Positions 2 to 36,000 of a stretch of DNA of 64,000 nt are shown one piece after another. Both the position numbers and the translations under genes were made by a program. Under the pieces are notes generated by a model. It saw nothing but the letters and a program-made list of their open reading frames with translations. It searched no databases and was not told where the DNA came from. Position 1 is the first letter of the stretch. Every line of letters begins with the position of its first letter. Origin of the DNA: an uncultured Planctomycetales bacterium (GTDB taxonomy: Bacteria; Omnitrophota; Gorgyraeia; Zapsychrales; JANLHA01); contig CAZQQI010000004.1 in NCBI GenBank assembly GCA_964595465.1, positions 30,195 through 94,194 of the forward strand. The letters run 5' to 3'.

Positions 2-3000
2 ATACTCGGTGCTGTGAGTGCGTTTATACTGAGTCTGATCGGATTCAGCATAGCCATTCGTGCGCCGAATACCTCTATTAAACCGACAATCAAACAAAAT
101 GTGAAGAACCCGGTTCGACGTGTTCTTGGTGAATCCAAGCGTGCGTTTGACCGGGTTTCTTCATTATTCAGCAAAGGAGGAGCAAAATGGTACTTATCAA
201 CACGCACAGAGAATTGGAATTCAAGTACTTCCTGGAAATTCCTCAAAGCCGCTGCACGTTCTGTTCAGGCCGGGATGAAGAAGGGCGCACACGTCTTTAC
301 CTCATCTTCCGTGATCAGGAACGGGTCTATCAGCGCAACGGGATCAAAGGAACCTGGGACGAGATCGCCAGCAGCGCGGAACGCCGGCAGATCCACTCCG
401 TCTACAGCCAAGCGCTCAGCAGTAACCGCGTCCCGCACTTCAAGAGTAACCGGTTCCATTCGATTCTTAATTAGTGCGGCGGTTATTCTCGGCACAGCAG
501 AAACGGCCCAGGCCGCTTCGACCGAAAGCATTGTTTCTGCTGTGCCGGCCTGGATCCTGCCGGCGCTGGGATTCAGTATGATCGTGATGATCAGTGCTGT
601 TTTGATAGGGAAATTGATCAAGACAGCTAAAGAGCACGAAGCACAGCAGAATTATGAAGAAATCACCTCTGATGATCTGATCGAAGAGTGGACAGAACTT
701 GATATTCTTTCAGCGCGGGAATCAGCAGCTCGTGGGTTGGAGGTGGTTGGATTAGGCGCGGCAGCAGAATTGGTCCGCCGGGGTGAAGTGGATGCTGATT
801 ATAACGCTCAGCGCTACGACGCGTATGTCGGCCGGTTAATCGCACAAGCTATGTTTCATGACGAGCATGTACAGGAATGGATGACCGGCAAAAATATTTT
901 AATTAAGTTGACTGGCCGGACACGTTACCGTTTCTACAGCCGGGCGGTGAGAGGCGCGTTTGCTGAACCGGATGATGCCAAGAAAGAATATGGCGAAGAC
1001 CTGAGCGAGATAAAATTAACCGAACGCAGCATTAAAGAAGATATTAGAGAAGCCGCCCGGAAAGCATGGGCGCAGATAACTGGAGAAGGTGCAGGAGGTG
1101 TCGAGCGGTTAACCATACTTAAAGAAAACGCCGCTCAGCGCAGAAAAACTGAAAATATTGCAAAAGGTTTACGCAAACTGAGCAAAGCCGCCGTTTATAT
1201 CATTTTGGCATTGATCGGGCTGGCAGTATTTAACGCGATGACTGCACCGGCTATGGCACAGACAATCTCCGCCGATACGCAGGAAGCATCGCTCAATACG
1301 TCATCAATCTCCAGCGGACAAGCAGCCTCATCCTGGCTGCAACCTGAAAAGCTGCGCCTGCCGTCCAGTGATGATGTCCTGGTCGGACTGAATGTCCGCG
1401 ATTCAGGCTGGGATGATATGCGCATTATGATGGCGCAGGAAAAATCAGGTGAAATTTATGGCGCCCTTAAAAAGTCTGGCCGGCTGCAATTATGGCACGA
1501 GGCCCTGGTGAACCGCCAGGCCGCGTCTTCCGGGGAGGTCGTGATCGGGGTCACCGGACATATTATCGCTCAGGATCCGGTCATTGACGGTCAGCATGTG
1601 GCATTGGGTCAGAAGATCGAGATCGCTAAGGGCATATACGCGCGCGTGTATGCGCCGCAGATGTTCCTGGCCTATGAAAATGAAGAGGATGCGATCGTGG
1701 CGGTTACGGCCGGCGGACGTCATTTCGTGATCCCGGCTGACCTGAGACAAGAGATCGTGGCGAAGCGTTCCGGCAGTGAGACTGATTGGGTTGCCATTCC
1801 ACAGCGGGATGATAAGACCAAACGCGTGATTATCAGAGAGCGTACCATCAGAGAATTGAACGGGCGTCTGCCTAAGCATCGCATTAATGGGCACGACGGT
1901 CTGCGCGGCGGAGCCGTCATGGTCTTGAGCGCCCGGGCCCAACGCCAGGACCGGTTTGCCTTTAATAAACTCTCCGGCCAGCTTCTGCGTGAAGCCGCTA
2001 AGGAGATCGGTACCGGGTATTATGATACCCAACTGCTGAATATGTACCGCACACTCACTTATATGTTCGAACGTGAAGCCGGCTTGACCGAATCTCTGGC
2101 CTACCGTTACTTCGAAGAAGGTGAAGTGATCGGGGCCAGTTATGTTGGAAACGTCGATCGTTTCAAGGCTGACATTCCGTATGACAAGGTCTACAGCCCG
2201 TATTCCGGCCAGGTCACGAAGGTGGAGCGCACAGGGTTCGGTATTCGTATCGAGATCGAGGGGGCGCCCAAGGTAATTACTGGATTAGAGGCGACGATCA
2301 TTAGAGAAGGCGAGATCGTCAAAGCTGGTGAACTGATCGGTCTGGATCGCGACAAAGCGCCGGCAGAGGAACGCTTGGTAAGTATTAAAGAACAGATTGA
2401 AGAAACGCAGGATGAGGCGGCGAAAGTAAATAAGGCCATTGAGCGTGCCGAACGGGATAGAGAGCAGAAGGAAAAGATACTGAAGAGCCTTGAAGATCGT
2501 GAAAAGGCCGGTGAGAGCGCCGTGGCCCAGGCCCGCCGTGAACAGGCGGCACAGATGTCCGGTTGGAGTATCGCGGGCATTAATATTGACCAGTATCAGG
2601 CTGACCCGAAAGTTGTGGCGGAACATCTTAAGATGCTGATTAACGGCACGGTCAGCCCGTATCAGGTGGAAACGGGATTGAAGCTGACCCTGGGTATTTC
2701 CACCAATGGCAATCTGCCGCTGGGCAATATCCCGGGCATGAGCTTTGGCATGAACGGGTTCGGAACCAACATCAGCGGTGCCGGCGCGACGCAGGGCCCG
2801 GCTGATACGCTCAATCTGATGTTCGGTGATGCGCTTTACGAAGGCGGCAATGCTATGGCCGGCAAGGCGCTGGCATGGCTGTATGCCATGAAGTACGCGA
2901 CACAGATCTGGAATTCGATCGCCACTGAGATCCACCATGGTGATGAGCAGCGGGGCATGATCATTATGCCGCATACCAATGAAATGCTGATGCTGCTTCC

Positions 3001-6000
3001 GCTGGATTATACCGAACATCTGGTGGTTCAGCGCGACCTGCAGAAGAAAGACGGTAAGTATGTCTTTACCGAAAAGGATAAAGAATATATCACCCTGAAG
3101 TCGAACTGGACCCGTATTATCGAAGATGTCCTGAGCACTTTGTCACTCAGTCCGCCGGAGAAGACCCTGCTGGAAGAATATATGACCAATCATCCGATCT
3201 ATGTACCGGGCGACCGTGAACGCCTTTTCTGGCTGGAAGGAGTCAATCAGCCGGTTGATTCGGATTATCAATATATCTCAATGCGGGGTATGAGTAAGCA
3301 TCAAATGCGCGAACGTCTGGCCCGGATGCGTAAGGCCCGGAATAATCTACAGACCCGCATCGATGATGCGGCTTTACGTGAAAGTTATCGAAATTTTTAT
3401 AAATCCGCGATCCCGTATCTTGAAAAAATGCTGGCCCAGGCCTCTGCGGACGGATATAAACCGCAGGAATTTTTGCACGGTTACCGTTATAACAAACGGA
3501 CCGGGCAGCTGGAAGAGCGCATGCGGATCCGTATGTTCATTGAAGATGAGAACGGCAAGCCGGTTATTCAGCAGTGGTTGTCTAATGATGATGAGGGTGC
3601 AGCCTACCGTATGCAGCCCGGCACAGCCTTCTTTATTCCGTCTATCGCGCGCGTGACACATAATCTGCCGGAAGTCCAGGCTGGATTGTATGGCAAGGGC
3701 ATGAGTTATGACCCGGCAAAAGGAATTTTCAGCCGTTATGACAATCCTTACAACAATGTCTTTCCGGCCACCCGTCCGGTTTTGAAATTGATGAGCAGCG
3801 GGACCACCTTTGATCTGTTTTCTTCTCTGGCCCAGGCGCGGGCCCTGCCGCAGGCCGTGGGTAAGAATCTTGACGGGTCTTATGCTGAATCTCTATTTAT
3901 CCCGGGTATGGATCTGATCATTGTTTCTTACTGGTTTAATAATGAGATCGTTCCGGAAGGCTCGCAGAATGCCGGTATCAGACCGGCACAGGTTACTGGA
4001 CATTTGATCCCGTTCAAGTTGGCGCAGGGCGGCGGTCAGGGTCAGCCGCGGATTTATGATCAGGCGCCGACATTAGCTTTTACCAGCCGTCTTTCGCAGC
4101 GGGATTGGAGCGTTATCCGCTATCCGGTTGATAAGGATGGCAACCGTATCCCGGTCATGATCCGCACGGTGGATCCGCGCACGGGTGCGGTTTATAAACG
4201 TCCTCTGCCGGAAGGCGTGAAGGTGGTTAAGCGCGCCGGCGACCGCCTGGGTAAAGACCAGTTCGCCTTCTGGGTGGAGCGTCCGCAGAGTATTCCGCGC
4301 GAGATGCATCTGGTGGGTGATGAGGTTCGGTTTATTTCTTCACCGCAGGAATCCGCGATGTATGGAGAGCTGGCGCCGGCACGCACAAAAGAAGACGAAC
4401 GCCGTGTTGTGAAGCTTACCTGGAAGCTTGATGAGAAAATGATCTGGGAGAACATCCTGCATGACAGCGGTGATGACCAACTTAAGCACACTCGCCTGCT
4501 GATCGGCGAAGGGCGCGCGATCGGTTTGGCGGTCCTCGGTGCTAATGCCGAGCCGTTGGATGATAACGAGAGCTACACAGCCGCTGTGAAGCCGGACGGC
4601 ACCATTGTCCGCTATGATGATGCTAACGATCAGCCTGTGACACAGAAGATCGTAATCCCGGTCCTGGAGAAGGCCGATGTGAACGCGCTGGTCACCTTCC
4701 TGCGTAAATATCAGTATCAGCGTATGGATCTGAACACTGTCCGCCGCATGCTGACGGATAAAGATTTTCCGGCTGAATGGAAAGGTGTCTTCCAGATATT
4801 TTCCAATGATGCCCAGAAAGCACTGGATAAGGTTCAAGCAACACAGGCGGCTTTTGAAGCGCAGGTACGCATCAAAGACCGCATTATGCAGATGATCAAA
4901 TCGTCTTATGCCGAAGAAGGCGATCTTATGCGTCAGCGCGCGCAGGCGGTTTTCGGTATCTTTAAAGACATGACCGAGATCGAGGTGGAGATGGTTTCCG
5001 GTATGTTGATGATGAAATACCTCAAGGAGATCGCGATCGAGAATAATATGAGCCTTGATCAGCTGATCGAACAGCTTGAGGAGCGCGGCGACCTGCGAGA
5101 TCAGATCATGAAGCTTCTGCATGACCGGTTTACGCCGACGCATCTTTTCGGGCGCGGGGCCGCGCAGGACAACCAGAGCAAGCTTCGTCAGACAGAAGAA
5201 GGCATTCAGCACTTCCGCAACTTTACTCCGAAGACCAGTACCGCATTCAGCGCATACGAGCTCGGCGGAACGACTGTTGCCGGAAGAACAGTGACTTTTG
5301 ATGAGGCCATCGCGTGGAATAAAGGGCAGATCAACACCTTTAAAGAAGACTATAAAACGGATCTGATAAATTTGATGAACAGTGATGATGCAGATGACAA
5401 CCTGCTGCGTTCACAGGAAGAATTAGCAGAATCTCATGACTGGCTGACCACAGAAAGCATCCAAATGCGTCAAGCCATGTCTGACATCGCCCATCAGCAG
5501 AATATTTACGGAGGCTATGTCAAGGCCGCTGATTTTATCGGACAGTGGTATGACAATGCGGCCTATTGGCAGGGCGCTTATGATATCAGTGATTTTCATG
5601 TCCGTCAGGAACAGTGGACCTGGAAGAATGGCGAGCTCATTAAACATCGTCCCTGGTATCATGAACATCAATTAGAAGATATTGACCGCTGGATCGCTGG
5701 ATATAAGCGCAACATTTCTCTCCTGCAGATCGCCGATACAACACGGGTCGAGAGTTTTGAAGGGCTCTGGATCCGTCCGATCCAGAGCAAGACCGTTTAT
5801 ACGGTAAGTGACGCGCAGAAAGAGGCGGACCGCTTGCGCGAGGAAGTTCGCTCCCTGCCGTTTGCATTTAAGGATATACAGAATATCACGGATGAAGCCC
5901 GCGCGGTCTATCAGAAATATACTGATCAGGTTCTGCCGCTGCAGAAGGCCTACGCGGATCTGCTGGCGAAAGACGCGGCCGCGGACGCGTTATTCCAGGG

Positions 6001-9000
6001 CAACAATCCGAATAAAGAGACAGTGGAAGACATCCGCGCGCGTAAGTTGAAACTCTTCCAGGCAGAAAAGGCTTGGCGTGAGGCGCGTCAGACTGTTCTG
6101 GCAGAGCTGGATCAGGTTGGGCAGGGTTATTATCTGGATGAACGCACACGCCGCATTCTGGACTTTGAGCGTGAATTGGCGCTGACTGCTGCCAAAAATT
6201 TCTTTGACCGCCGCGGTCTTGGCGCTAACCCGCACGGTGCTATGTTAGAGAACATGAAGAAGTTCGCCAGTTATAACTGGCCGCTGCGTGACATTGCTAA
6301 TCGCATTTCTGATCTGCGCCGGGCGTCCGACAATGCTGAGAAAGATATTGCGCGTGCGCATCAGGCAGTTGTTCACGCTCAGCAGCAGTTCGATGATTTG
6401 GTGACTAATTTTGGCCGTTCATTCATCGACCATTTGGACGAGCATTACGAAGGCGTGGTCCTCTCCCAGAAAGACCGTAATTATATTGCTTATCAGCTGG
6501 CCCGGATGCAGCGCGGACCTCCGCGGATCAAATATATGAATGGTCAATTGTACTTAGACGGCCGTCGTGTTGACGCGGCCGGCACGATCAGTCAGGGTCG
6601 ATTTACCGAGATCTCTTCTTCTGATTTTCGCAACGGCGAGATGTCCGCGCATATGACCGCCTGGATGGATCCGGAACACGGCCGCAATGTCTATATTATG
6701 AATGCTCAGCCGAATGCCGAGGGCATGGGCGGACATCAGCTGATGCTGCTTGAGGTTAATCTGACGCCGGAAGAAGCCAGGAATTTTACACATCATTTCG
6801 CGATCGGAGGCGGGCAGTGGTCCCGCACCGAACAGCAGGGTGCGTTTGACGAAGAGGGCGAGACCGTGACTGAACGGTACGCCTTGATCCTGGATACATT
6901 AGCGTGGCGCAATGATAAATTTTCTTTGAATGTGGTCGGGTTCGGTAAGATCTCAGCATCAAAGAACGGTACACATGTCGGTGGTCTTCAGGGTACGCTA
7001 GAATACAAGATCAACGAAAAGGCGCGTTTGATCGTGGAAGGCGGATTCGCGGCATCTAGCCGAAAAGAGACCTATAGTGTTTTCGATCCTGCCACACAGG
7101 CCTATAAGCCGTGGACCCTGCGCGGGAGCGATAACTATAATTATCAGAAGATCACACTGGATCATGTCCTGACCGAAAAAGGCGGTCTGCGCGGTCAGAT
7201 CTCGCTCATGCGTGTGCAGGAAGGCAGCTTTGCCCGTAAGATCAAGGGAAACACCAGTATCTTCCCGTCTATGGGGCTTACCTATAGTCCGAAAGACGCA
7301 GCCAAGCGTCAGGCCGAGGCTAAGTTGGCTGAGCTTAAAGAAGACGGTGTGACCGATCCGTTTGAATTGCAGGCAGCGTATCAGAAGACCTATAATGAGA
7401 CCCTGGCGCAGTTTAAACTCCCGGTTGAGGTCGCTTTTGAACAGGCCCTTGGGTTCAACATGACTAACATTGAGGCGCGTTACAAGAATGTCTGGATGCG
7501 GGCGCGTCACCTGGACGGCACCTGGACTTATGGCGCGGGCGCGCGGATCATCGACCGTGAGCAGGTCAAGATGGATGTCAGTGTGTCGGTTGACGCTCTC
7601 GGCACACCTGTGGTGAATCTGGCGACATCCGCCCAGCCTTTTGACGGTGTCGAATTCAGCGCTTCGTTGGGCAATAAAGATCCGCTGGTCAGCGCCACGA
7701 TCGATATCTTTAAACTGGCTAAAGTATTGGCAGTGAATGAAGAGACCGAAGCGGCTGCGGCCGTGACCCTGAGAGATCTCTCCCGGACTCAGATCATGGT
7801 GGGTCTGGATCTGGCCGGTGTGGTCGATGCTGACGCGCGACAGATCGTCAATATTATTATGCAGATCCGCAGCGACAAAGACTTCATGAAGACCAATCCG
7901 GGTTTTGATCAGATCCTGGCCCATGAGAAATTCAAATCTCATCAAGACCTGAAGAACATCCTAGATAAACGCATGGTTGTCAGCAAGCTTGCTTGGACTA
8001 AGACCGTTACGGAAGAATTCGTTGCTTATGAAAAAGCGGATATTGATCCTTTCCTGGCCCTGGCCCTTGCACCTCAGCCGTTCGATCAGCCCAAGCCGTA
8101 TGATGTCAATGTTTACCTGAATGAGAACTTGTGGCAGACCAGATATGCTGTTCTTGAGACGGACGCCGGGGATCTCAATACGAGCGTTGTCGGGCTCAGG
8201 AAGCGCATCGCTCATGAATTAAAGATCGCGAACAATAAAGATTATTTCGGCTATGCCCGCTTGCTCGGCCGCTTGAGCCAGGGGCTGACGATGGAAGAAT
8301 ACAGCGTGGCTGTGACGGTCGAGAAGGCGTATGAAGAATACAACGAGAACGGCATGATCCGGTTCGCTCCGGGCAGCGGGTATTACTTCCGTATGCCGTA
8401 CCGTGGTGAGATTATCGAGATCCCGATGGGTGACGGGAAAGGCCTGGTCATCGTTCCTGAGTTAGCTGAAAAATATAATCTGCGTGAAGAATTGCGTAGC
8501 CCGTATCCGATCCCGGTCGAAGCGAAGCTGAATATGCTTAGATTGATCGAACAGGCTTACGAGGGGGATGGGTACTATGTGGTGCCGGGCGAAGGGCTTT
8601 ATCAGATTACCGACAATCAGCTTGATCTGCACCCGGATGCCACAGACATTCCGGCTGAGGCGATCATCGTCCGCAGTGAACAGGGCATTGCAGCAACGGC
8701 AAACCATTTTGCTCTGATCGTACCCAACAGCCAGGGAGAATGGGTCAAGATTTTTGCAACGGAGGCCGAGATGGTCAACTTGCTGAATGACAGGACCTAT
8801 GGATTAGATTATTACCTGTTGACAGAAAAGGACCAAGACGGTGAACCTATTCGCATGCTGGCTGTCCCGGCTGAGGAAGGCATGTCCGGTGCCAAAGAAA
8901 CCATTGACGGCCGCTGGGTGATCGGTGTCGGATATATGAACAGAGAATTGAACGACCGCCTGGATAGCGAGACTGAAGAATTCAACGCCGGGACACTGGA

Positions 9001-12000
9001 GAAGGATGGCGAACCGGTGGTCATGCGCCTGAACCGTCCGAATGTCACGGCAGACACCTTAGCAACATCGCTGACCCGTGAAGAAGCCGAGCAAATGATT
9101 ATAGATAACATGGCGACTGAAGAGTCAGAGCTGAACGCGCCGCACTTTGTCCTGCGTCATCTGAAGGACAACCTTATGGATGCCTTCCCTTATTATCAGG
9201 ATATCGATGGTGACCAGGAATATGATCCGCAAACCGATGCATTCAGCAAGGGTGACCCGCGTTTCTATGAATCCCAGCCGAATGAATCTTCGCGCGGTGA
9301 CCAGTGGCAGCCGCTGAAGACCTTCGGTATCTATGATCCGCAGACCGATACATTTTACACCTTTGATTTTGCCGGCGAAGACGGGCGTATCGGATACGCT
9401 GCGATGTCTGATATCTTAGCGCCGTATTCGTCTGTTGTCGTGAATGAAGCCGGTCAATCCGTTTATAAAACCACGGAAGGGCTGGACGCGCTTATAAGCG
9501 AAAACATCCTGAGATGGGCTAAAGAGACAGAGGGCGGGCGCACGCGTTATATCTTAGAAAGCCCCTATTCACCGGTTGGGTTATCGCGTGACTTGCGCGA
9601 TCAGTTCGAAAACATTCTTGAGCAGGGTCATTGGCTGGTCCTTAAAGAAGACACCGTTATTCCGTCCAGCGTGGATCCGCAGAAATTGATTGCGGTGACC
9701 TCTAGATTCGAAGCGCTGCTGGAAGGTTCCCTTGAGGATAAAATTGAAATCGTCCGAATGGATGCGGACGGATATGTGACAGCCCATGTCTACCTTGATT
9801 ACAATCCTCAGAAATCACGGATCGGAGTTGTCGATAGCGCCGTTGAGCGTATCTACAACTTGGCGGATTATATCGAATCCCCGGCCGATGTGCAACCTGT
9901 CGCTGATGCGACGACGTTGGATGAGCTGACCTATAGCGACATGAGCGATGTTCCGGAATTGACCCTTCAGCGTTTCCACAAGATTATGGATGCTGTACAG
10001 CGGTTGGGTGAGGATCTGAAATACGTTAAGATCCGTGATCTGGATGTGACGCGCTATTTTGATGGACCGTATTATACGATTGAAGTCTTTGAAGAAGGCG
10101 CCAGCGATCCGATCGTCAGTATTCGCCCGCTGCAGGAAGAGATCGTTTGGTTTGACGCCGAGGGGAACGAACGCTACACCACTGATCTGTACGGCGAAGA
10201 GGGCGTCCGGGTCAAAATTGGGGATCGCTTCGAAGAGAATGTCACCGGCGTCTTCGAATTTCATGAAGACGAAGACACCGGGTTATACGTTAGTTTGCGT
10301 GAGACAGAAGAAAATCCATCGTACACGACCATGAAACGTACCCATACTAATGGTGCCATACAGCGAGAAGAGGTTGCCACTGTAAAGAGAAATGACGTGA
10401 TCAATATCCTCAACACCGGTCAATCGTTACAGAACATCGCTGAGGGAGCGGACTTCACCTATGCCGATGATTATGTTTACGACAATGAGCATAAATTGGC
10501 CGAACGCCGTATTGGCGTTCATGATCAACACGCATGGACCATCTATCCGCAGGTTCAGGATGGGCCGGTTGAAGGTATTACGGAAAAACTGCTGGCCTTA
10601 AGCGATGTCGGTCAGAGCTGGGGTCAATTTAATATTACTTCTGATATGGAATGGGAGATCGCCAAAACCGTACGGGTTTTCGGCAACAATTACAAAGTTG
10701 AGACCTATGACTACCGTATTCCTAATGATCCTTTAGAGCGAATCTTTTTAACGATTAGGATGGAGAATGGTCAGCTGATCGAAATGATTGCCGGATTGGC
10801 ATTTGATCAGCGTACCGGGGATCAGATCCGTTCATCTGTCCTGGAGATGAACTACGACGAAAAAGCCCAATTTGATTATCTTGAAGAAGATGAACGGGAG
10901 CAGTTGGATATTATTGACAACGCTGGACAGCTGTTTGATGCAGAAAAGATCGAGACCCTTATGGGCGCGATGGCCAGACGGTTCCCGGAAGCCGTCAAGA
11001 TTGATCGTGCAGGACGCCTGACCCGGTTCTTTGATATTATCGGGCAGGAAGATGAGATCCTGCCGGAAGACTATCCGCAGATCTTCTGGGGATTCATGCG
11101 CCGCATGGGAATTACCCCGGACACAGAATTTACGGTCTTGCGTGAGCGGGCCCGCCTCTGGACCGGTGATGGATATTCTGATCAGTATTTCGCCCGGCCG
11201 AAATTGCATTACCTGATCCCCAATGACAGCCGCGGGCGGGATGCTGTGGTGGTCTATCCCAACGGCGATATGACCCTGAACTTGTGGTGGCTGGAGGGTG
11301 AAGAAAATGTCCATGTTATAAACGGCGGTCCGCGTTATTACGATATGCCGACCGGGGTTCTTCCGGGTATGATCACGATCGATGCAGACAATGAGCTGAA
11401 GCAGGTCGGCATATACCGTGCTCCGGCTCAGGGTGAAGCTGAATTCGATATTACCTTATATGAGCGCGAGAATGGCCGTCCGCTGGAAGGCGCTGACCCG
11501 ATTGTGGATGTCCATGCTGGCGGCGGACAGATGTTCCAGACAGCGTTTTATAATGAAGACGGCTCCAAGGATGTGTTCATCGGTCATGAATATGAGATTA
11601 TGGACGCGGAATTCAAACGCAGCGCCATCTATACGGCCGGTGGTCAGCTTCTGGCTGAGAAGTATTCCCATGTCACGGTTCAGATCGTCAAAGAGCTGTT
11701 GGGTGTTGGAACCAATGGGGAAGAAACGATTGTCTTTGATCCGCGCCAACCATACCGCTATCCGATCCAGGCTTACATGAGGAATGCCGAAGGAGAGAAT
11801 CTTGCGGACGGCACCATCGTTAAGACCTTTGTTCACCAGGACAGCATGATGGATTTTAGCGCTGATCCTATAAAAGCCGATGTGGGTGCTCAGAAGAGTG
11901 AATTTGTGGTTTATGAATCTGAGGGCGTGGCGCCGCAAACAATCAATGCTCAAAAGTATACCTATATTGATGACGAGCTTCAGGAAAAGACCCGCTGGCA

Positions 12001-24000: not shown

Positions 24001-27000
24001 CCGTGATATTCTGGATTTTTATTATCAAGCCTATCAGACGCAGATCCGAAAAAACAAAAAGATTGGGTTAGCGGGATTATTTGATAATGACCGTAAATAC
24101 TTTGAAGGCTTTGCTCCGTCATATCATGCTTACACAGGCGTACCGGAAACGCGTGCTGACCTGGCCTCGACAGCTGCGGTTGGATATATGATCCTTCGCT
24201 ACGAAACAGCAACCGGAGACAGTCAGTATCATGAAATGCTTCAAGATATTGCTTACTGGCTGCGCGCGCGTCAAGAAGCCAGCGGAGGACAAGGTATACG
24301 CTCAACAGAGAATGGCCCGCTCAATAAATATGCCGAGCCGAATGCCGTGGCTTTCGCGTTCTTGAACGCGTACGACCGTATCGATAAAGAGTATCGAGGC
24401 ATAGATAGGATCGGCAATATTTTCGGCCACAATAATCGGTCCTTAAGCGGACGTGCCGCTGATGATATTCAGCGCTGGCTGGTGACCCGCATGTGGCAGG
24501 ACGATCTCATCCGCAATGCGCAGAATGGTGCCGGATATTCGGCAGACGCGCAGTCACGCTGGATCACAGTTCTTGGGCCGGATAAAATTATGCAGATCAA
24601 GGCGTGGAATGCGAGAGATCTCTATAATTATGTCCAGGATATCCGCAGTCATTTTGAAGTGAGCATCGATCATCCGGTTTATGGCGAGCTGCGGTTGATA
24701 GATGTCGCAGACCGTACTCTTATCGCTGGAAGCGATCGGCCGGAAGTGAACGGCCGAAAAATTCGAGCCGGGTTTATTGAAGCGACTTCAGAAATGATCG
24801 GTGCGTTCCGTATGATCGCTGATGAACTGGAACAGCAGAATGAACATGAATTGGCGGATCGTGTCCGTGCTTATGCCCGGCAGTATTCAAAATCTATCCG
24901 GAGCGTGAAAAACCAGCAGGATGGGACACTTCCACAGGCTGTGCATGTTTTGGATATAAATCCGGACACGAAAGAAATTGATTCCGGGGTGGGTTATACA
25001 ACAATTATCGGAGACCGATCATTAGCGGCGCTTGCTCAATATCAAATCAGCGTGATCGATAATGAAAACATGTTTACCCTGGATCAAGACAGCAGGCCTA
25101 TCTTGTATATGGAAGGTCGTCCCGGCCATGAGATCACAGCCGAAGAGATGCGGAATCAACCAACGGTGAATATAGGAGAAGAGAGCCATGAGCTCATGCG
25201 GCGCAATATCGAAAACATGATCGACCGCGCTAATCGGGGAGAAGAAGTGGAAGGCCTGATTTATTATGACGCAACGAACGCCCAAGAAGCAGTCTTTATT
25301 GACGAGCTTGGAAGGCTTCAGCATGTTAAGTTGATTCCTTCCGCCGGCGAGCGTCAACGGTATGCCTCACTGCTTGACCGCCAGTTCCGCGATAGCCGGG
25401 ACTATGCCCAGGCGTTAAGGAAAGGCGGTGTGATCTTTACAGGAAGTGACCGCCGGCCGATCCGTACAGATGATGGCTCACGGATTTATGGATCAGAATG
25501 GGTCGGTAAAGTTTTAGACGCGGTCGATGAACTGACTCAGATTGAACGTTCTGCGATTTATCATAAACGTTTCGCGGATTTTGATATCGATATAGACCTT
25601 GACGGAGACGGCACGAAGGACAGCGTACGGGCCACGATTGTCTTTCCGATGGAGGAGAGGCTGAGTGTCCGCCGATCGATGCATGAAAAAACCGGCCTGG
25701 CAGTGACCCGTGTCTTTAAAAATGGCCGCCCTCTCTATGAAGTTCACAATGGAACCCTCACGGTGCATACCTTTCAATCGCCTAGGAGTGAACAAGCTGT
25801 TGATATGCTCAGACGGGCTGAAAAAGAACTCGGTCAGGATATAGATGTGCTGCTGCCTGCGGGATCACACAATTATGATTTCGGGGAGATTGAATTCACC
25901 GAAGATAATATTGTGGAACGTGTTCAAGATTTTCTCAACGAAGATCCGCAGGTGATAGCAGAGAGTGTTGTCACAGGGCATCATTTTATGGATGTGGAGC
26001 ACGCGAAGGCGTATCAGACAAATGCTGAAGTCAGCCGCGGTGTACACATTGATTATCAAACAGGTGAAATGAAATATAGCATTCATGGGCTTGCCGGTCC
26101 TATTTTTGAGGTCACCCACAGCAAAATCGTGCAGAATATTTATACACCTGAAGGAGAGAAACAGGCCTCGTTAGTCTATGTGAATCCCATTGAATCCGAT
26201 AATTTGGCTGAACAATTGCTGATAGGGATGGATATCGAGGACATCATTCAGCAGTCCGGCTTACAGGCGGAAAGACACCAGTATACGGCCGGAGAAGAAT
26301 ACCGGACAATCGAGCAGGTACAGGATCGCCGTACAGATGAGGTGTACATCCGGGTAGTGGATCGTCATGGCCGCATCCAAGTGGAACGCCATCCCGAGTT
26401 TTCCACCGAGACCCGTTATACCTTCGATCAAGATTTTGTAGGCGGGAAAATTGCCGCGCATAGTACGACATTTCAGAATGACCAGCCCATTAAAGAATTC
26501 AAAGCAACAGAGTATGATACTGCGACTCAGACCGTTTACGGAATGATCACCGATCTGTGGACCGGAGGGGAACAAAATGTGGCTATCCGTGAAGGCAATA
26601 TTGCGGAAACGCGTGTAGAAGATAGTTTGGGCGATATTCGCCACACGGCATATGCGCGGAATAGAAACGGCACGAGAGTAACGGCAACGATCACCCAAAC
26701 CGGCGAGCCGCAGCAGACGGTTATATCAGAGTTCGATCCTCAACGCGGTCTCTGGCAAGAACACGGGACAGAATGGGCCGCCTTTGGGGAAGGATCTCTG
26801 CCAATGCAAATGCGCCGGGAACGGGATTTAGAAGGCCTGGTGATTCAGGAAGAGAATGCGACAACCGGCCGTTTATATGTGCCGCAATACAATGAATATG
26901 GTACAGAGATCAGCGGTGTCATGTATGAGAAAAATCTGGAGACGGATAAATATGAGCCGGCTTATCGATATTCCGATTATATCTATCAAAATGGGGATGT

Positions 27001-30000
27001 GACGCGGAAGCGAACGGATGCGCGCAACGGAGTAGTGATTTGGGAAACATTAAGTCAGCTGGGCGCGCAAAAATATATCTGGTATCCCGCTAAAGGTGAA
27101 GTGGTGAATGTCCAGAATAATAGTGTACACACCATTGCAGGAGGAGAGACACTTGGAAGCGCGGAGGCTATTGGTGAACAGATCGCTGAGATAAGGGATG
27201 CTGGCGTGATTGATCAGTCAGTCGAGATCGAAGGGGAAGAAGTGATCGTCCGGATTCAGCTGACAAGACGAAGCGATCAACCGCTGACACTGAAAGGCAT
27301 CGATCCTGCCACGGGAGAAACAAACGCGGAGGCGTCCAGCTATAAAAATGAAATCATCCTGAAGGATTATGATGTGATCCACACATATGAAAATGGTGTT
27401 ATCGGCGAAAAGAAAGCGGATGTGATCCATCATGGTGTCATCGAACAGGAGATCCACTATGGAGATCCGCTGCAGACCGCAACGGTTCGATCTGTGATCA
27501 CAGGGCGTACAGATGAACCGCAAGAACTTGGTGGAACAGATCCGTCAACCGGAGACACTAATGCCGCGCTTTACCCCGATAAGAATGAAATAACGTTAAT
27601 TGAAACCAATACGATTCACAGGCTTAGTCGTATTGATAATGTGTCCTGGCTTATCGGAGAGCAGATTGCGCAACTGCGGCCGGCAGGGATGTTGAATGTG
27701 AACGGCCGAACGGTGCAGGTGTTTGAACGCAGTGCTTGCAATGGCGCATATGAGAAGGCGTTCGGCATCATCACGGATGTTACCCGCGAAGAAAACCGTG
27801 ATGAGATTGGTAAAGAATATATAGAATTTTATCCTACCCGATTTGAAAAACGAAAGCCGGTTGAAGGAAGGGCTCTTATCGGATTTAGAGAAGACGAGCG
27901 ACGCATAATATATCATTTTAATAAGGAATACCAGCTTGTAGGAAGAAACGAAGAAATTCTGAGCGGATCATTAAATGAAGAATATGCTCTGGGGTGGATT
28001 GTCCGATCCACTGATGCCCTTCATGCCTTACCGCAGAACCTGCCGGAAGGCTTTAGACATAATTTTGAAGCGCACTCGGTTGCGGGCGATATCTTTATTG
28101 CTGATGAACAAGATGATAGCCGTAAATTCGTACGATCCTATATTATGATGTCATCGGGTAATGAGGATAAGATTCTGGCGGAGATCACGCGAGACAGTTC
28201 TCTTACCGGCGGATATAGAGTTGAATTTGATTTTATATACAATCATCAGCGTTATGGTTTTGTATATTCTGCCAGCAAAGAAAATCAGATTTATCGTTTC
28301 AATGAACTGATCGGCTACTATGAATATGATGGCTCAAAGAAGTATATCTATACGGCGACAGAAAATGAGAATGAGTTCAAACTAGCCGGCGTCTGGTATA
28401 AAGGATCCCGCGGAGATGATACATATATGCCGGTGGAAAATTTTAGGGCGTCCGTTTTTCTGCAAGGACGGAAGATCGTTGATAAATATATTCAGAAACA
28501 GGGTGAGGGGAAACCCGACCTTCCGAAAAAGGTTGTCTATGATCAATACGGTATTCCGATCGCTACCCTGAACCGTACGACAGGGCGCCTGATTGAACTT
28601 GTTAAAATTGAGCGGAAAAATGATCGTATGGCGATCTTCGGTTTCGCGAGCGGTTTTTATACTCCTCGGCTGGAGATCTATGAGATTGGCGATATAACAC
28701 CTCTTGTTCGTGCCTGGGGATTCAGATCTCGCTCCCGTGCCTGGACCAATCGTTCAGATTTCCGTAACAGAGTTAATTCCAATATTTTTGATGCCGCGAT
28801 TCAGGAAATGCGGCAGTTGGTTAATGGCGGAAGAACTCTGGAGGGCATGGATCTTAGTGAAGTGTATGAAGAGATTCAGGACCTGCGTAAGGCGGAAGAG
28901 TTTCAAAAGGCGCTCATAGGTATTAATTTTGTCCCGGAGGGTGTCGGGTTAAGATCAGTGCCCTGGCGTAATGACAGCGAGGAAGACATTCAAACTCCGG
29001 CTCTGCCTATCAATGACGGTTGGATTCCGCAGCAGATTAAATATCATGATGACGCACACGCAGCGCTGATCCCTACCAGCCCTGAGGCGCAGTCGAAAGA
29101 ATATATCAATACTCGATCAGAGGCCGTGATATTACGAGCGCTCTTACGTATGGGCCGTTATCAGGACGTTGCCCGCGCACTTCGTTTCTACGCTATTATG
29201 ACCAGTGACGGGACAGAAAATGTTAAGAACTCTTACCATGCGCCGTCCGGAGAGCCGCTTGAGCAAGTCTTCGGTTACACCAAGCCGTCATATGCCGCTT
29301 CAAAAGCGGGCTCTTCTATTGCAGTCGCAGAGGTTGCCTGGGAATACGCTTTGGTCACGGGTGACAGATCTGCGGCTGAACTGGCAAAAAATATTCTTGA
29401 AAAACTGATCCGGGATTATCATTCACAGCATCTTGATTACGGTATACGCAATGTTCCATCAGAAGGCGACAAGAAAGTTCTGAATGGGACCGTTATGTGG
29501 CCGGAACCGGAGTATATGGATACCACAGATAATGTGTCTTTTTACCTCTTATTGGAAAAAATGTCCAGGACCGGAGAGGGATTTAAGAAAAGACCATTTA
29601 AGCAGATGGTTGAGAACCTGAAAGCGTCTCAGGAACAATGGATAGATAACTATCTTAAGCCAAGATTTCAGCGTGAAGGAGTTGTTACCTCGGGCATCTT
29701 TGAGATCCAGGAAGTTGTGCCGGAATATTCAACAAATGATCAAAAAACGCTTTATGGCGAAACGCCATCTGTTACCCCGCAAGACGTCCTTCTTTATATT
29801 GAAGCGCAATTAAAGCGGAAGACTATGACTCGCTTAGAAGCAAAACAGGCATTGGATCAGGTTGTCACATATTTCGGTGTTGAGGTCGAAGGGCTGCATG
29901 GTCTTGATTATAGTCTCCCGATGGCCCGTCAAGATGTTATTTCTACAGAAATTACGGGTGAGTTTATTTCAGTCGCAGAGAAGGCGGGCTATGATGAGGC

Positions 30001-33000
30001 TGCAAATTTCTATAGATCTCAATTGGGCAAAATGGTGAAAGACGGGGCTTTGCCGGAAGTGATCGTTCCTGAGTTTAAAGATTTCAACATGAGCCGGATC
30101 GCGACGGGTCATGATAATCAATTCGTCGCGCGGGCAGTCGAAGGCGAATGGCCGCGTTCTCCGCTGGCAGCGGCTTATGTCAAGCTGGATCAGATCGAAA
30201 ATCAGCCTGAACCAGGCGCGGATGATTTAAGAGATCTTCCAGCCATCCAGGCGCCGCAGCAATGGCTGAACAGCAGTCAGATCTTCTGGGCCATCATGGT
30301 CATAGGTTTATTCCTGACGACCATCATTGTGCCGCTGATAGGATATGTCGTCTGGAGACAGTATCGCCGTAAGGCTAAAAATGAAAATCCGATGAAAAAT
30401 GATGAGGCGGAGAAAAAGCTTCTGCTTAAAGAAGCTCATGCCAAGGAAGTTGAGGAACGCTGGGCGCTTAAGATCTTGAGAAAGATTATGGTGACGTCAA
30501 TCCATCAGAAGAAAGGTCAGTATGTTGAGGATGACGACGCAGAGGCTCGTGAGATTGCGGCTGAAGGTGTTGATACCGTGATCGGTTCCGGAGCACTGGA
30601 GATCAACTTTGACACACAGGTGCGTGAGATCTATAAGCTGATCGCGGCCTGGCAGTTAAGAGAAAAGAATAAATATTCGGAGGATGTAGAACAGGTGCGG
30701 AGATTTTTAAGCGGTGACGGCAATGCTGTTTTGAACGCCATGGATGAGTTTTTCTTGGCGGTTTCCTTCTTCGCCCGCCGCGTTATTAAAGAAGGAAATA
30801 AGGACGGCGGTGGAGATCAGGATTGGATCGCGAGGATCTTCGGGAAAGGAGCTGAAAACCCGACCTTTGACAGTAATCATATCTGGTCCCGCCTGATGAT
30901 CTATTTCAATCCGTATGTGCACCGTCTGAGACGTCTGCTCGCTGAGTATGATGCTGCCTTGGAAGACATGCAAGAAATCAAACGGATCAGCCGGAGCATC
31001 CGCAAGGTCTTGACCGATATGGGCATGCGGTCGCCGGATAAAAACAGCGCACCTTCGCTGCAGAGACCATATTCCTTCGATTATGACGGCAGTGATATTG
31101 TGATACAGGTGCCTGCAGGCTATGAAGTAGTCTTAATAAAGCATATTTATGGGGTCAAGGACGATGCAATCGATGAGAACGAAGAAGGGAATTATATGGT
31201 TCGTAAGGGCGATGATACCGCTATCGTCAGACATCACAAGGATAATAATGGGCGCAATGTGTTGATTTATGCAGAGCCGGAACAAGATGTGGTGTTGACG
31301 CCTCTGCAGCGCTTGAACCTTATACAGAATGTCATTCAGAATAATGTCCGGACAGAAGATGAGCTGAGGGCCATAAAGCTGATCTTAGGGAAAGGCATCA
31401 CAGCAGCTATCAATACAGGGAAGAATAGTTTTGATGGTTATTATATCGTTGAGGATTTGAGCCTTCAGGATGTGATGACGTTAATCGCTAAATTGATGCG
31501 CAGAGACAACGTATCGGAAATGGCGTATGACGAAGAGGAAAATCCTGTTCTTAAGGAATTTATTGATAAATTCTATGCCTTCAATCAGCGTGAACAGGTT
31601 AAGCCGCGACATGTCTGGTCTCTGGAGATGTCCAAGGCGTTCCCGTATCTGATGAGCGCGCTGACAGCGGCGGTGGTAGCCTTTGATGCCGTATTCAGCC
31701 GTGGGCAATTGATCCCGCAGATCGTGAAAAGGATCGCGCCTGTACTGGTCACGAGCCCGCTGTTTATCCTGGGAGCGGTCTTTGTTGGGGTGTCTATACT
31801 GTTATACGCGATTCAAAAGCTCATCATTGAACCATATCGGTACGCCAGACCGGATATAAGCAGTTCCCAACTGAAAAAAGGCATTAGCTGGAATTGGAAG
31901 CTGTGGGAATATGCACGCAATCTCCTTCGTCTCGCGGGTGTCATTGGTATGCTGTTCGCTATAAGCGGGCTTTCTACCACCGGTGCGGCGCAGACGTTGT
32001 TGGTGCATTATATTCTGCCTATTCCGTTGGTTATGGAGGCCTTCGGCATCGTTTATCCGGTCAGTCAGACCTTTTTAAGCCGTCTGACACGTGCTCTTCA
32101 TCGCCGTTGGCCGACGCCTGCCTCATCTCTGAAAAAGCACAAACAGATGAAGTTTATTGGTGTGATTTTGTTTCTGGGCGGTCTGATCAGCATGATGGCC
32201 CTGCCGGCCATGATCGCTTCAATTATAACCGGGGTTGGTGTCGCGGTATTGTTGGCTGAGCGCACTCTGCTGAATTCGATCAATTTCTTTGAGTCCCGCC
32301 CGTCTTCAGTCATTGCGGACTCATTCAAGTATCATTTTAACCTGGCCGCACCGTCAGGGGATCTATGGGGACGGGGCGCGATGAAGCTGAACTACATACT
32401 GATGACGTTAGGGTTCGCGGCCCTTGCCTTTTATGTTATGGGGTCTCCGGTCCTGGGTGGCTGGTTCTACACACATTATTTGATCGACGCTGCAATGATC
32501 AAGACAGTGATGGCTTCCGGTTTTCTGATTATGGCCTTCCTTCTTTCTAGGATGGCTCTCTACAATGTTATGATCTCAATTATCCGTTCGTTCGTTCTTA
32601 TGCCGGTTAAATTCATCGCTACTCTGTATGCTGTTCTGTCTTTCGCGTTCCCTGAATTGTTCGCGTTCCATTGGGCTGTGAGTTGGGCGATCGCCGCCGG
32701 TCTGATGATCGCTGGGCGGTTTGTTGATCCGCTGATCCACAAAGCGTATTATGCGCTGGAACGCAAACTGGTGGAATGGCGTTTTGACATCGCTAGCGAC
32801 CGGAAGAAATTAGCAAGGGTCTTAATGCCGAAAGAGAACGGAGTGACAAAATACTTGAACGTGGCCAGGGCCTGGCTGGCTGAATTACTTGCGCCGCAGG
32901 CCGCCCAACGAAAAATCGGCATTGTTATGATGGGCGGAGATGCTCTAGGCACGCTTGGTCGTTTAAAGAACGGACTTTCCCGCAGCCGTTGGGATTGGCT

Positions 33001-36000
33001 GCGTCAGCGCAAATCAAAGGCCTTGCAAGCTTACATGGCCGGCATTCATTTTGATGAACATCTGGGAGAAGAAGAGATCGATCAGACCATTAAGCAATGG
33101 CTTGAATTGCTGCACCTTTATGAATATTGGTCCAAGGTCACCTTGTTCCATGAATCTCAGCTGGTTGAGGATGCTGTGAAAGGGACGTTGCCGGAGCAGT
33201 ATGAGCGTGAGAAAGATGGTACCCCGAAAGCCAAGGAGAATCCGAACATTGATGATGAAAACCTGAATGTTTATATTTTTCCGGGAGATCGCGAAAAGAT
33301 TCTGCATGCGTTTCAGATCCGCCGTTACTTGATCTCTATGATGTCTTCCGGCGGGCAGTCTCAGGATACCGGGGTCACGCTTGTGGATATGGCCTTGGCC
33401 TTTAAAGATAAAGGCCTGGCGGGATCTGTTGTTTTTAATATGCTGGCTAATAAATTTAACGATGCCTCTGCTATACCCACGGAAGAAAAGTTTTCTTGGG
33501 ATGCGGACTTCGGGCAGAGAAGAAAGCTCGCGCAGCTGATCTATCAAAAGACCGGTATTAAAAGTAATATTATCCATGATTGGACACCGTTCGGTGCTAA
33601 AGCAACGGCCATGACCGGGGCCGATATGACTCGGGATGCCACGGATTATGATTTTAATGTGATTATGGATCGCAATGCCTGTGTGCAACAGGTAGATAAT
33701 TTGATATTTGATGTTAAGCGTGCCATTACCGATCCCGATACGGTCATTATTGTAACCGGTCGTGGGACGACGAACACCTTTATGCCCATGGGGCAGGGGT
33801 CTCAGAATATTGAGGAAGGCCATCGTGCTTATGTGGTCGGCGTTATGGCGTTCGGCGGCTCCGCCGGGGAAGCCGTTGGAACAGGATGGGGGAATATCCT
33901 GCGCAACCTCTACTGGGAAACTCAGATGGCTGGACTGAATCCGGATTTCCCGTATCGTGCGTTGACCCCGGATGCCCGCCGTCTGCAGAAGGGCTTCTGG
34001 AATCGTCTGATGTCCAATACGTTTGGGATGATCGGGTTCAATCCCAACGCTGTCGGGATCAGTGAGGATATTTGGGCAGTTCAGCAACAGGCACATTCTA
34101 CGATCGCACTTGGCGGTATCCCGAAATTCCGCCGTTCTCGTGCGTTTTGGCATAAGATCCGTGAATCCTGGTCTCAGACAGACTGGCTCGCGGCCATGCC
34201 GCGCTGGGCCGGTGGTTATCCGCAGAAGATGGGCGACTGGATCATGCAGGAGATCATGGATATGGGGCCGTTGTCCTTGCAGGCCAAAGAGATCCGGGCG
34301 CATGGCGGCCGCTTCTTCCTTTATGCCAAGATCGGCCTTTTGAATATCCTCTTGACCGCGCCGGCTATCAAACTCGGCATTCTTCCTTTTGTCGGGATCA
34401 ATGTAATCCTTTGGTTGCTGGGTTTTATTTTTAACCAGGTTTTGACTATTAACGGTTTATTGGCTCATATGGAAGGGCACGGGTTCCATACTGTTCCCGC
34501 TGTGATCGGTGCTGTGGGTGGCGGAATCCTGAGCGCGGGGAATCCTGCCGGAGCCTTGATCGGTTTTGTTATAGGAGGGTATATTACTGCCATCGGGCAG
34601 TGGGTCAAGACCCGCGGGCGCGATATGTTGTTATTCGCGAATTTGATCGCCATCCATGTTCTTGGACAGACCATGCGTCAGACGCTGGAGTTTATCCCCT
34701 CTAAGGGTTCTGCCACCGATCACGAGACGGTGGACATGAGAATGATCATGACAAAGTCAGAAAAAGATTTTATCAATACGCGTACGATTGCCTTGATGGG
34801 GCTGATATTGTTCGGGTTGAATGTTTGGGCGCTGATGAGCTTGGATATGCTCAACGTTATTCTGCTTTTCCCGAGCCTGATGTTTAATTTGGGCCTGATT
34901 ATCGGGCCGTTTGTGGAGAAAACGAAAGAGGGGCAGGCTTGTCATCCGGTTCTGGAATTTATCGTTCAGTCATCAGGATGGGTTGTTGCAGGCGTGTTCT
35001 GCCTTCTCGCGACAGCGCTTTTCGGACTGGGCTTGGGTGGCGCGTATTTGGGATCAGCTCTTGTCGTTTATACCGGCTTGGTTCTTTTAGGTTGGGTATC
35101 GAAAAAGGATGTTCAAGAAAAGGGCTGGCGCTGGAACGGATATTCAGTGTTGTATTTTATCGGCTATCCTGCAATTGAATCTATAGATTGGATATTCTCA
35201 AAGATTCAGGGTCAAAGATCACGGAGACTATCTTCTGAATTTGCCCGGCATTTTGTGATTGGCTTATTTGTTCTTTTCTGGTTTTTTATCGTTCCCGTCC
35301 CGGGGGTCTTGATGCTGGAAGCAGGGGCTTATCGAATCATGATGACCCTGTCGTCGTTAATGAGTGATATTGCCACAGCCGTGGTTTTTGTGGTCATAAC
35401 CGCTGCGCTCGGATCTTTGGTGGCCTGGGCGTTACGCCATGATTTTGGTCTCCAGAGGATCAAATCTATGCTCCGCGAGAAGAAGGGAAGCCATATTCGG
35501 TTTTCTGCACTTTACCGCGAGTATTCTCGGCAGGATATGGATGAGTTGCATCATGCGAAGACCGCAGCAGCCTTTAACGATGCCGCCGAGTTTATTGAAC
35601 AGGATCATGAGCAGTTTGCTCAAGACGCTTTGGATTATATAGAAGGACTGTTAGGGGATCATTATAAGGTAAAAATTATTGAAGGGATTAATGCCGATAG
35701 AGTCCATTCTATGCCTGCGGAAAACGGCTACGACCTACGCGTCAGCGATGTCCAGATCCCCGAACAATACCAGCCGGCGGTGGAAGCATCCTTACGCAAA
35801 ATGCTTCAGGAAGGCGCGATCCTGATCAAGGCGGTTGACGCTGAAGGGCAAGAGATCACCATCCCCGCCGATCAGATCACCATCCGCTTCTCCAGTGTGC
35901 ACTTTATTATCGAACACAAAGAATCGCTGACCGATATTCGCGTTGAAATAAAAGAGGGCAAAGAAATCCTCCCGGAACAGCCCGCGGCTCTCGAAACCAA

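Follow-up and report, generated by a model that had tools for sequence, protein, structure and literature searches.

The closest described systems are the giant 'Archaeovorin'-type genes of Omnitrophota (West-Roberts et al. 2023, bioRxiv 10.1101/2023.11.21.568195; 2026 preprint 10.64898/2026.06.07.730766). Traits counted for such genes are a neighboring type II/IV secretion-like locus, downstream pilZ genes and an N-terminal C39 or S8 peptidase. The 2026 preprint describes the repeats within them as mostly old and diverged, not recent tandem expansions. It is an open question how bacterial genes grow to tens of thousands of codons. Here, we analyze a stretch of 64,000 nucleotides (nt) from an uncultured bacterium with a GTDB lineage in the Omnitrophota (the window; contig CAZQQI010000004.1, positions 30,195 to 94,194), in which a sequence-only reading had noted that two regions of one open reading frame (ORF), nt 505-19160 (module 1) and nt 19603-35912 (module 2), begin and end alike, and had proposed that a unit of 16-19 kb was duplicated whole, in tandem and in frame. 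Part of this proposal stands, in that in-frame duplicated ends do bracket units of similar size, but the interiors show no collinear similarity. The explanation that we favor, at a probability of roughly 0.55, is that the window lies in a giant multi-enzyme gene threaded through the membrane, that in-frame copying within it, long ago, was confined to the two boundary blocks and left out the 16-19 kb units that they delimit, and that part of the first block was recently gene-converted.

As had been claimed, both regions belong to a single ORF: the plus-strand frame from nt 2 to nt 64000, which contains all of the window features described below, comprises 21,333 codons, is free of stops and is open at both ends, while the five remaining frames hold from 480 to 1,552 stops (nt 3n-1 to 3n+1 encode amino acid n). 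The regions sit within one giant gene that runs past both window ends, with uniform G+C content along the window (0.45-0.53) and a GC skew that is positive throughout. Pfam recognized HEAT (HEAT_2, 72 bits), TPR, PEP-utilizer, GH130 and 1,3-beta-glucan synthase (GT48) domains in the window protein and otherwise nothing, and its hydropathy profile has 77 peaks. The sole genomic relatives that we found are two Omnitrophota genome bins, L003 (29-42% identity over ~2,500 amino acids, aa), an 11.5 kb contig that is in a single frame throughout, and L004. In its frame of at least 21,333 codons, its many transmembrane (TM) segments, its HEAT, TPR and PEP-utilizer (PPDK-type) domains, its sugar-metabolism enzymes, its mostly unannotated sequence and its nearest kin among Omnitrophota contigs, the window gene resembles the 'Archaeovorin'-type genes, and it is probably a further member of this known class of Omnitrophota giant genes. 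Unlike the described genes, it is seen here without its ends, the full length and any flanking secretion genes lying beyond the window. ORFs of at least 200 aa on the minus strand gave no credible family match above curated cut-offs.

To compare the two regions, we cut the window protein into pieces and matched all of them against each other by self-BLASTP, with self-BLASTN applied likewise to the DNA. In both comparisons only two pairs of segments link the regions, each with a match far beyond what chance would give. The first is a start block of ~1.87 kb (block A; aa 172-792, nt 515-2377, and aa 6538-7152, nt 19613-21457; ~61% identical outside a near-identical stretch, E = 7e-167 and 8e-156), whose homology sets in at nt ~505/19603 and whose protein match ends at aa 792/7152 (nt 2377/21457). 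The second is an end block of ~0.5 kb (block B; aa 6275-6433, nt 18824-19300, and aa 11855-12018, nt 35564-36055; ~60% identical, BLASTP E = 2e-39), in which 58 of the 62 residues match between the core segments (aa 6325-6386, nt 18974-19159, versus aa 11909-11970, nt 35726-35911). The common start and the common 62-residue end were therefore rightly recognized, as were their offsets of 19,098 nt for block A (19,080 nt past an 18-nt indel) and 16,752 nt for block B; that both are multiples of 3 is uninformative, since the copies share a frame.

Between these blocks, aa 793-6274 and aa 7153-11854 (~5,500 and ~4,700 residues) gave nothing at E < 0.01 by self-BLASTP or self-BLASTN, and the best collinear chain of weak matches scored 102.5, against 90 +/- 10 for local shuffles and 85-99 for unrelated parts of the protein. 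The interiors had been described as alignable; in self-comparison the terminal blocks alone appear, the pattern that the sequence-only reading had itself named as contradicting its proposal. Profile methods gave the same picture. A hidden Markov model (HMM) built from three FKS sequences found no match in module 2, an HMM of module 2 with L003 reached a best independent E-value (i-E) of only 0.69 against module 1, and HMMs built via L004 as an intermediate sequence yielded no cross-module match. Alignment of profiles across the modules with hhalign scored 24.1. The null for this score is 17.6 +/- 3.0; 24.1 was reached or exceeded in 15 of 400 column shuffles, and a reversed control gave 22.4. 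Domain order, a further point of comparison, is not common to the modules either, the PF02364/GT48 and DUF218-like matches being confined to module 1. L004 carries a sub-domain of the module 1 arm (aa 2958-3180, E = 5e-12) and, ~200 residues from it, a sub-domain of the module 2 arm (aa 9274-9335, E = 9e-7), neither of which has a counterpart in the opposite module; this pattern speaks for a shuffling of domains among giant genes more than for conserved modules. By these comparisons, the interiors are different proteins, module 1 having a GT48/FKS-type glucan synthase and module 2 another kind of membrane domain, which is conserved in L003.

The L003 contig provides an outgroup for module 2. 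Its homology to the module 2 interior is collinear from aa 9467 through the second copy of block B (tblastn match aa 9467-11894, nt 28400-35683; 29% identity over 940 aa, then 37% over 1,573 aa, E = 0), and the two are 42% identical in a MAFFT alignment, so that the second block B adjoins an interior with a counterpart in L003. Module 1 has no similarity to L003 except between block B and the B-like domain of that contig. The two window copies of block B are 69% identical, compared to 46% and 41% between the L003 domain and the first and second copies, respectively. Relative to L003, block B and the module 2 interior are thus equally diverged, and the likeness of the two copies would postdate the split from L003. 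An interior copied together with block B should then exceed 42% identity between the modules and be easily recognized, and none is detectable, which indicates an event that involved block B alone. The likeness of the two copies would so come from copying or gene conversion of block B by itself. Both pairs of blocks are old (dS, the synonymous divergence, ~0.8-1.5) and under purifying selection (dN/dS, the ratio of nonsynonymous to synonymous divergence, 0.09-0.2): the copies of block B are 81-94% identical in nucleotides, with dS of 0.83-1.2 and dN/dS of 0.09, and those of block A, outside a near-identical stretch discussed below, share 62% of their residues and 70-76% of their nucleotides (~70-75% up to nt 2347), with dS of 1.4 and dN/dS of 0.19.

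Several observations weigh against this explanation. The order A...B followed by a second A...B is the expected remnant of a tandem duplication of units; the dS of block A (1.4) is in the same range as that of block B, and with values this similar a single event is possible; block A has no homologs, which limits the outgroup argument to block B; and the roles that we assign to the two blocks are drawn solely from sequence features. Moreover, the units share a layout of two TM helices, more than 3,000 TM-free residues, one TM helix, a TM cluster, a soluble domain of 480-620 aa with DxN and ED motifs, a second TM cluster and block B. Of the landmarks cited for alignable interiors, the TM clusters do run loosely parallel in position, and only that; they are the sole feature still in favor of a common plan.

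The proposed duplication survives only as an alternative in which the whole A-interior-B unit was duplicated in tandem very long ago, before the split from L003, and the interiors then diverged beyond recognition or were largely replaced, while selection and recurrent gene conversion preserved the likeness of the ends. The tandem order, the parallel TM layout and the pairs of DxN and ED motifs at comparable spacing in both units would all fit such a history; hhalign pairs NEDIF with SEDIW and GRVF with GRFF, though not significantly, and gene conversion is demonstrably active between the copies of block A. Nevertheless, we regard it as rather unlikely. Some 4,700 residues of aligned length show no significant similarity by any method, GT48 is recognized in module 1 only, and the reversed-sequence control scores nearly as high as the real alignment. 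The catalytic-type domains of both modules evolve slowly (31% identity to eukaryotic FKS for module 1, 42-54% to L003 for module 2), and therefore their mutual divergence would require extreme age. A pair of shared ends is thus insufficient to call a large duplication, and under the copying of boundary blocks that we favor, the ends at this locus would have been copied or homogenized independently of the interior.

Within block A, nt 531-1183 and nt 19629-20281 differ by one mismatch in ~650 nt (dS 0.01, versus 1.4 in the rest of the block), and both edges of this stretch are sharp, nucleotide identity falling to ~76% just past its 3' end. Because it is a sharply bounded identical segment inside an old paralogous pair, we read it as a recent gene-conversion tract between the copies of block A, through which the first ~650 nt of the block would have been made identical again; on this reading, it is direct evidence for gene conversion operating inside a giant gene. 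A repeat of 650 nt at ~100% identity is also typical of what misleads assemblers, and the identical stretch, or the adjacency of the two units, might be the product of repeat collapse, consensus polishing or a chimeric join. This appears highly improbable, as the identical stretch continues into ~1.2 kb of sequence that is homologous but diverged at both the nucleotide and the protein level, and collapse could create neither this diverged part of block A nor a block B pair at its observed nucleotide identity. The frame, moreover, stays open across every junction for 64 kb, and composition and GC skew are uniform.

Block A consists, in order, of a first TM helix (TM1, aa 185-203), a charged loop of ~190 aa, a second TM helix (TM2, aa 396-418) and a domain of ~370 aa that closes with a degenerate LytM-like (barrel-sandwich) segment. 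We assessed the distribution of charge around the TM segments and found that TM2 has seven Lys/Arg on its N-terminal side and none on its C-terminal side; its hydrophobic core spans 18 residues and it terminates in an A-x-A site (APAMA|QTISAD), which makes it look like an internal signal peptide. The LytM-like domain, which had been counted as a landmark of the interiors, lies inside this block: the last ~55 residues resemble an M23 barrel-sandwich segment (Pfam E = 0.0017), the two copies score 18.9 and 13.0 bits, below the curated cut-off of 28.7, and neither copy shows the HxxxD or the HxH zinc-binding motif in the alignment. With a sub-threshold score, zinc ligands missing and no match among PDB sequences, we rejected membership in the peptidase M23 / LytM family. 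Homologs of block A as a whole were found neither in a search of 5.8 billion proteins, nor in representative bacterial and archaeal genomes, nor by full HMMER against 1.84 billion representative proteins (a search that matched block B only), nor among PDB sequences or viral contigs.

From its layout, block A would act as a membrane re-entry and export block, in which TM1 returns the chain to the cytoplasm, the ~190-aa loop that follows is cytoplasmic, and TM2 would launch export of the ensuing arm of 3,300-3,600 residues, with cleavage by signal peptidase possible at that point. The two TM-free arms, as delimited by hydropathy, extend over aa 419-4013 (nt 1256-12040) in module 1, with no Pfam match, and over aa 6785-10094 (nt 20354-30283) in module 2, and are dissimilar to each other. 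The helix at aa 10095 that ends the module 2 arm has one Lys/Arg on its N-terminal side and six on its C-terminal side; because this charge bias is opposite to that of TM2, both arms are predicted to lie outside the cytoplasm. The module 2 arm also contains degenerate tandem repeats of ~80 aa (aa 9028-9232, nt 27083-27697; 35-49% identity), for which no counterpart was found in module 1.

Block B comprises a small helix-plus-sheet domain with a confidently predicted fold (AlphaFold2; predicted local distance difference test score, pLDDT, 88), followed by a linker rich in Pro, Ala, Glu and Lys, and has no specific relative in the PDB. It would thus serve as a small folded domain that closes a unit ahead of a flexible linker, and, through the common blocks, units that are otherwise unrelated would begin and end with the same topology. 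The domain was found in Omnitrophota sequences only, with three matches among 1.84 billion representative proteins and two genome loci, and in these other Omnitrophota sequences the B-like domains stand in differing surroundings. Its positions are nt 18896-19201 and 35648-35953 in the window, 8586-9083 in L003 and 9866-10228 in L004.

The junction between the units (nt 19301-19612), a gap of 104 residues between the first block B and the second block A, is made up of a low-complexity linker, a basic stretch SRTSRLRRFIRR and an extra TM helix (aa 6501-6519). Promoter-like and terminator-like sites occur there at chance level only, and a query spanning block B and the following block A gave no match in the JGI metagenomes. 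A basic stretch and TM helix that follow a linker resemble the N-terminus of a protein, and one may envisage that two neighboring genes of the same family, with an N-terminal block A, a C-terminal block B and unlike middles, were joined through the loss of a stop codon and a spacer. In agreement with such a fusion, one B-like domain begins a separately called 243-aa gene (P0002), another sequence (L002) has a stop codon just upstream of its B-like domain, and a possible gene boundary lies within comparable sequence in L004. The fusion is nonetheless quite improbable, as no free-standing A-like protein exists among the 1.84 billion representatives or the 5.8 billion proteins searched, no protein family with A at one end and B at the other came to light, and block B also lies in the interior of longer frames, namely in L003, L004 and P0004.

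An enzymatic assignment falls in module 1, where aa 4796-5304 (nt 14387-15913) match the Pfam family PF02364 at 210.5 bits, far above its cut-off of 37.2, and align with residues 814-1316 of yeast FKS1 (structure 7xe4; E = 6e-32). In FKS1, roles have been described for the Lys and Asn contacts to UDP-glucose, the DxN motif and the catalytic ED motif (PMC12715860). The corresponding GT48 motifs are kept here as GKPVNQNH (aa 5086), MDMN (aa 5106) and NEDIF (aa 5201), the last of which is the catalytic 'NEDIY' motif of FKS1, and TM clusters lie on either side of the domain (aa 4367-4674 and 5293-5578). By sequence, this domain is a genuine FKS1/GT48-type domain. A search with the module 1 interior against protein databases returned one match, a eukaryotic FKS, at 31% identity; to our knowledge, GT48 is regarded as essentially eukaryotic.

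In module 2, a soluble domain at aa ~10960-11435 (nt 32879-34306) lies between TM clusters at aa 10547-10904 and 11438-11808 and is 54% identical to positions 5481-7133 of L003. The window and L003 share, unchanged, the motifs MDRN, VTGRGTTN, SEDIWAVQQ and PRWxGG, which recall the DxN/DxD, ED and QxxRW motifs of processive GT2/GT48 synthases, although no profile detects the domain. It may represent an unclassified polysaccharide synthase family, on the basis of these motifs. The domain gave no Pfam match at E <= 10 and no match among PDB sequences, as a single sequence or as a two-sequence profile; the alignment of module 2 with L003 found nothing among proteins, metagenomes or PDB sequences; and an AlphaFold2 model from single-sequence input had a pLDDT of 36. 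The SEDIW/NEDIF region had been presented as shared between the interiors, but NEDIF lies in the FKS1 domain and SEDIW in a domain that no FKS profile detects. We rejected a GT48/FKS identity for the module 2 domain, as no FKS profile matches it and its hhalign score falls within the shuffled and reversed controls, and we likewise rejected NEDIF/SEDIW as evidence of homology, as 15 of the 400 shuffles reach the score and the reversed control stands at 22.4 versus 24.1.

Taken further, these features would suggest a protein of self-contained units, each with a huge exported arm and a membrane-embedded machine resembling a polysaccharide synthase (GT48-type in unit 1, a very divergent enzyme with DxN, ED and RW motifs in unit 2), delimited by blocks A and B that are kept alike by gene conversion, with signal peptidase possibly cutting at each block A. 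We offer this picture as a speculative and, on balance, unlikely extension of the copying of boundary blocks. If the blocks are reusable export and termination elements, they would hint at how unrelated enzyme units join into a membrane-threaded polyprotein and where it might be cut.

Downstream of both units, the gene contains a second in-frame paralogous pair (pair C; aa 13067-13470, nt 39200-40411, versus aa 14275-14678, nt 42824-44035) with ~40% identity and an offset of ~1,204 aa. Each copy is a head with a TM helix and a TPR-like part, the bodies differ after each head, with PEP-utilizer domains after the first copy only, and a third unit is hinted at by weak TPR similarity at aa ~15,727-15,795. 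The pair repeats the pattern of block A, that of a common TM-containing head with unlike bodies. Further along, a tandem repeat of 99 nt (nt 60167-60551; 3.9 copies, 93% matches) encodes 33-aa repeats, which at the protein level reach across aa 19989-20227. In L004, which comes from a marine Omnitrophota bin, a 991-aa frame (3-2975) ends where a frame of more than 5,740 aa (2927-20146) starts, with a short overlap; either a true boundary between genes or a frameshift within one giant gene may account for this. NAGPA, acetyltransferase and CofD-like domains are encoded in the second of these frames.

Three points appear worth following up, namely the pattern of boundary blocks, the conversion tract and the GT48-type domain. 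Dispersed boundary blocks, a near-identical intragenic conversion tract and an FKS-type domain are, by keyword search, unmentioned in the main texts of both sources on 'Archaeovorin'-type genes. The dS of ~1 between the window repeats agrees with the old, diverged repeats of the 2026 preprint, as its main text describes them. The GT48-type domain resembles FKS1 and callose synthase (CAZy GT48, PF02364) in that the Lys and Asn contacts, the DxN motif (DAN in FKS1, DMN here) and the ED motif are kept and the domain lies between TM clusters in both; it differs in that it is embedded in a giant bacterial polypeptide, covers profile positions 7-511 of 819 only and shows no match to accessory domains. 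As in the concerted evolution of large repetitive genes, a pair of copies with dS of ~1.4 holds a sharply bounded stretch of ~650 nt with dS of 0.01, but in contrast to a head-to-tail array, the copies in the window lie 19 kb apart in one frame, around unrelated sequence.

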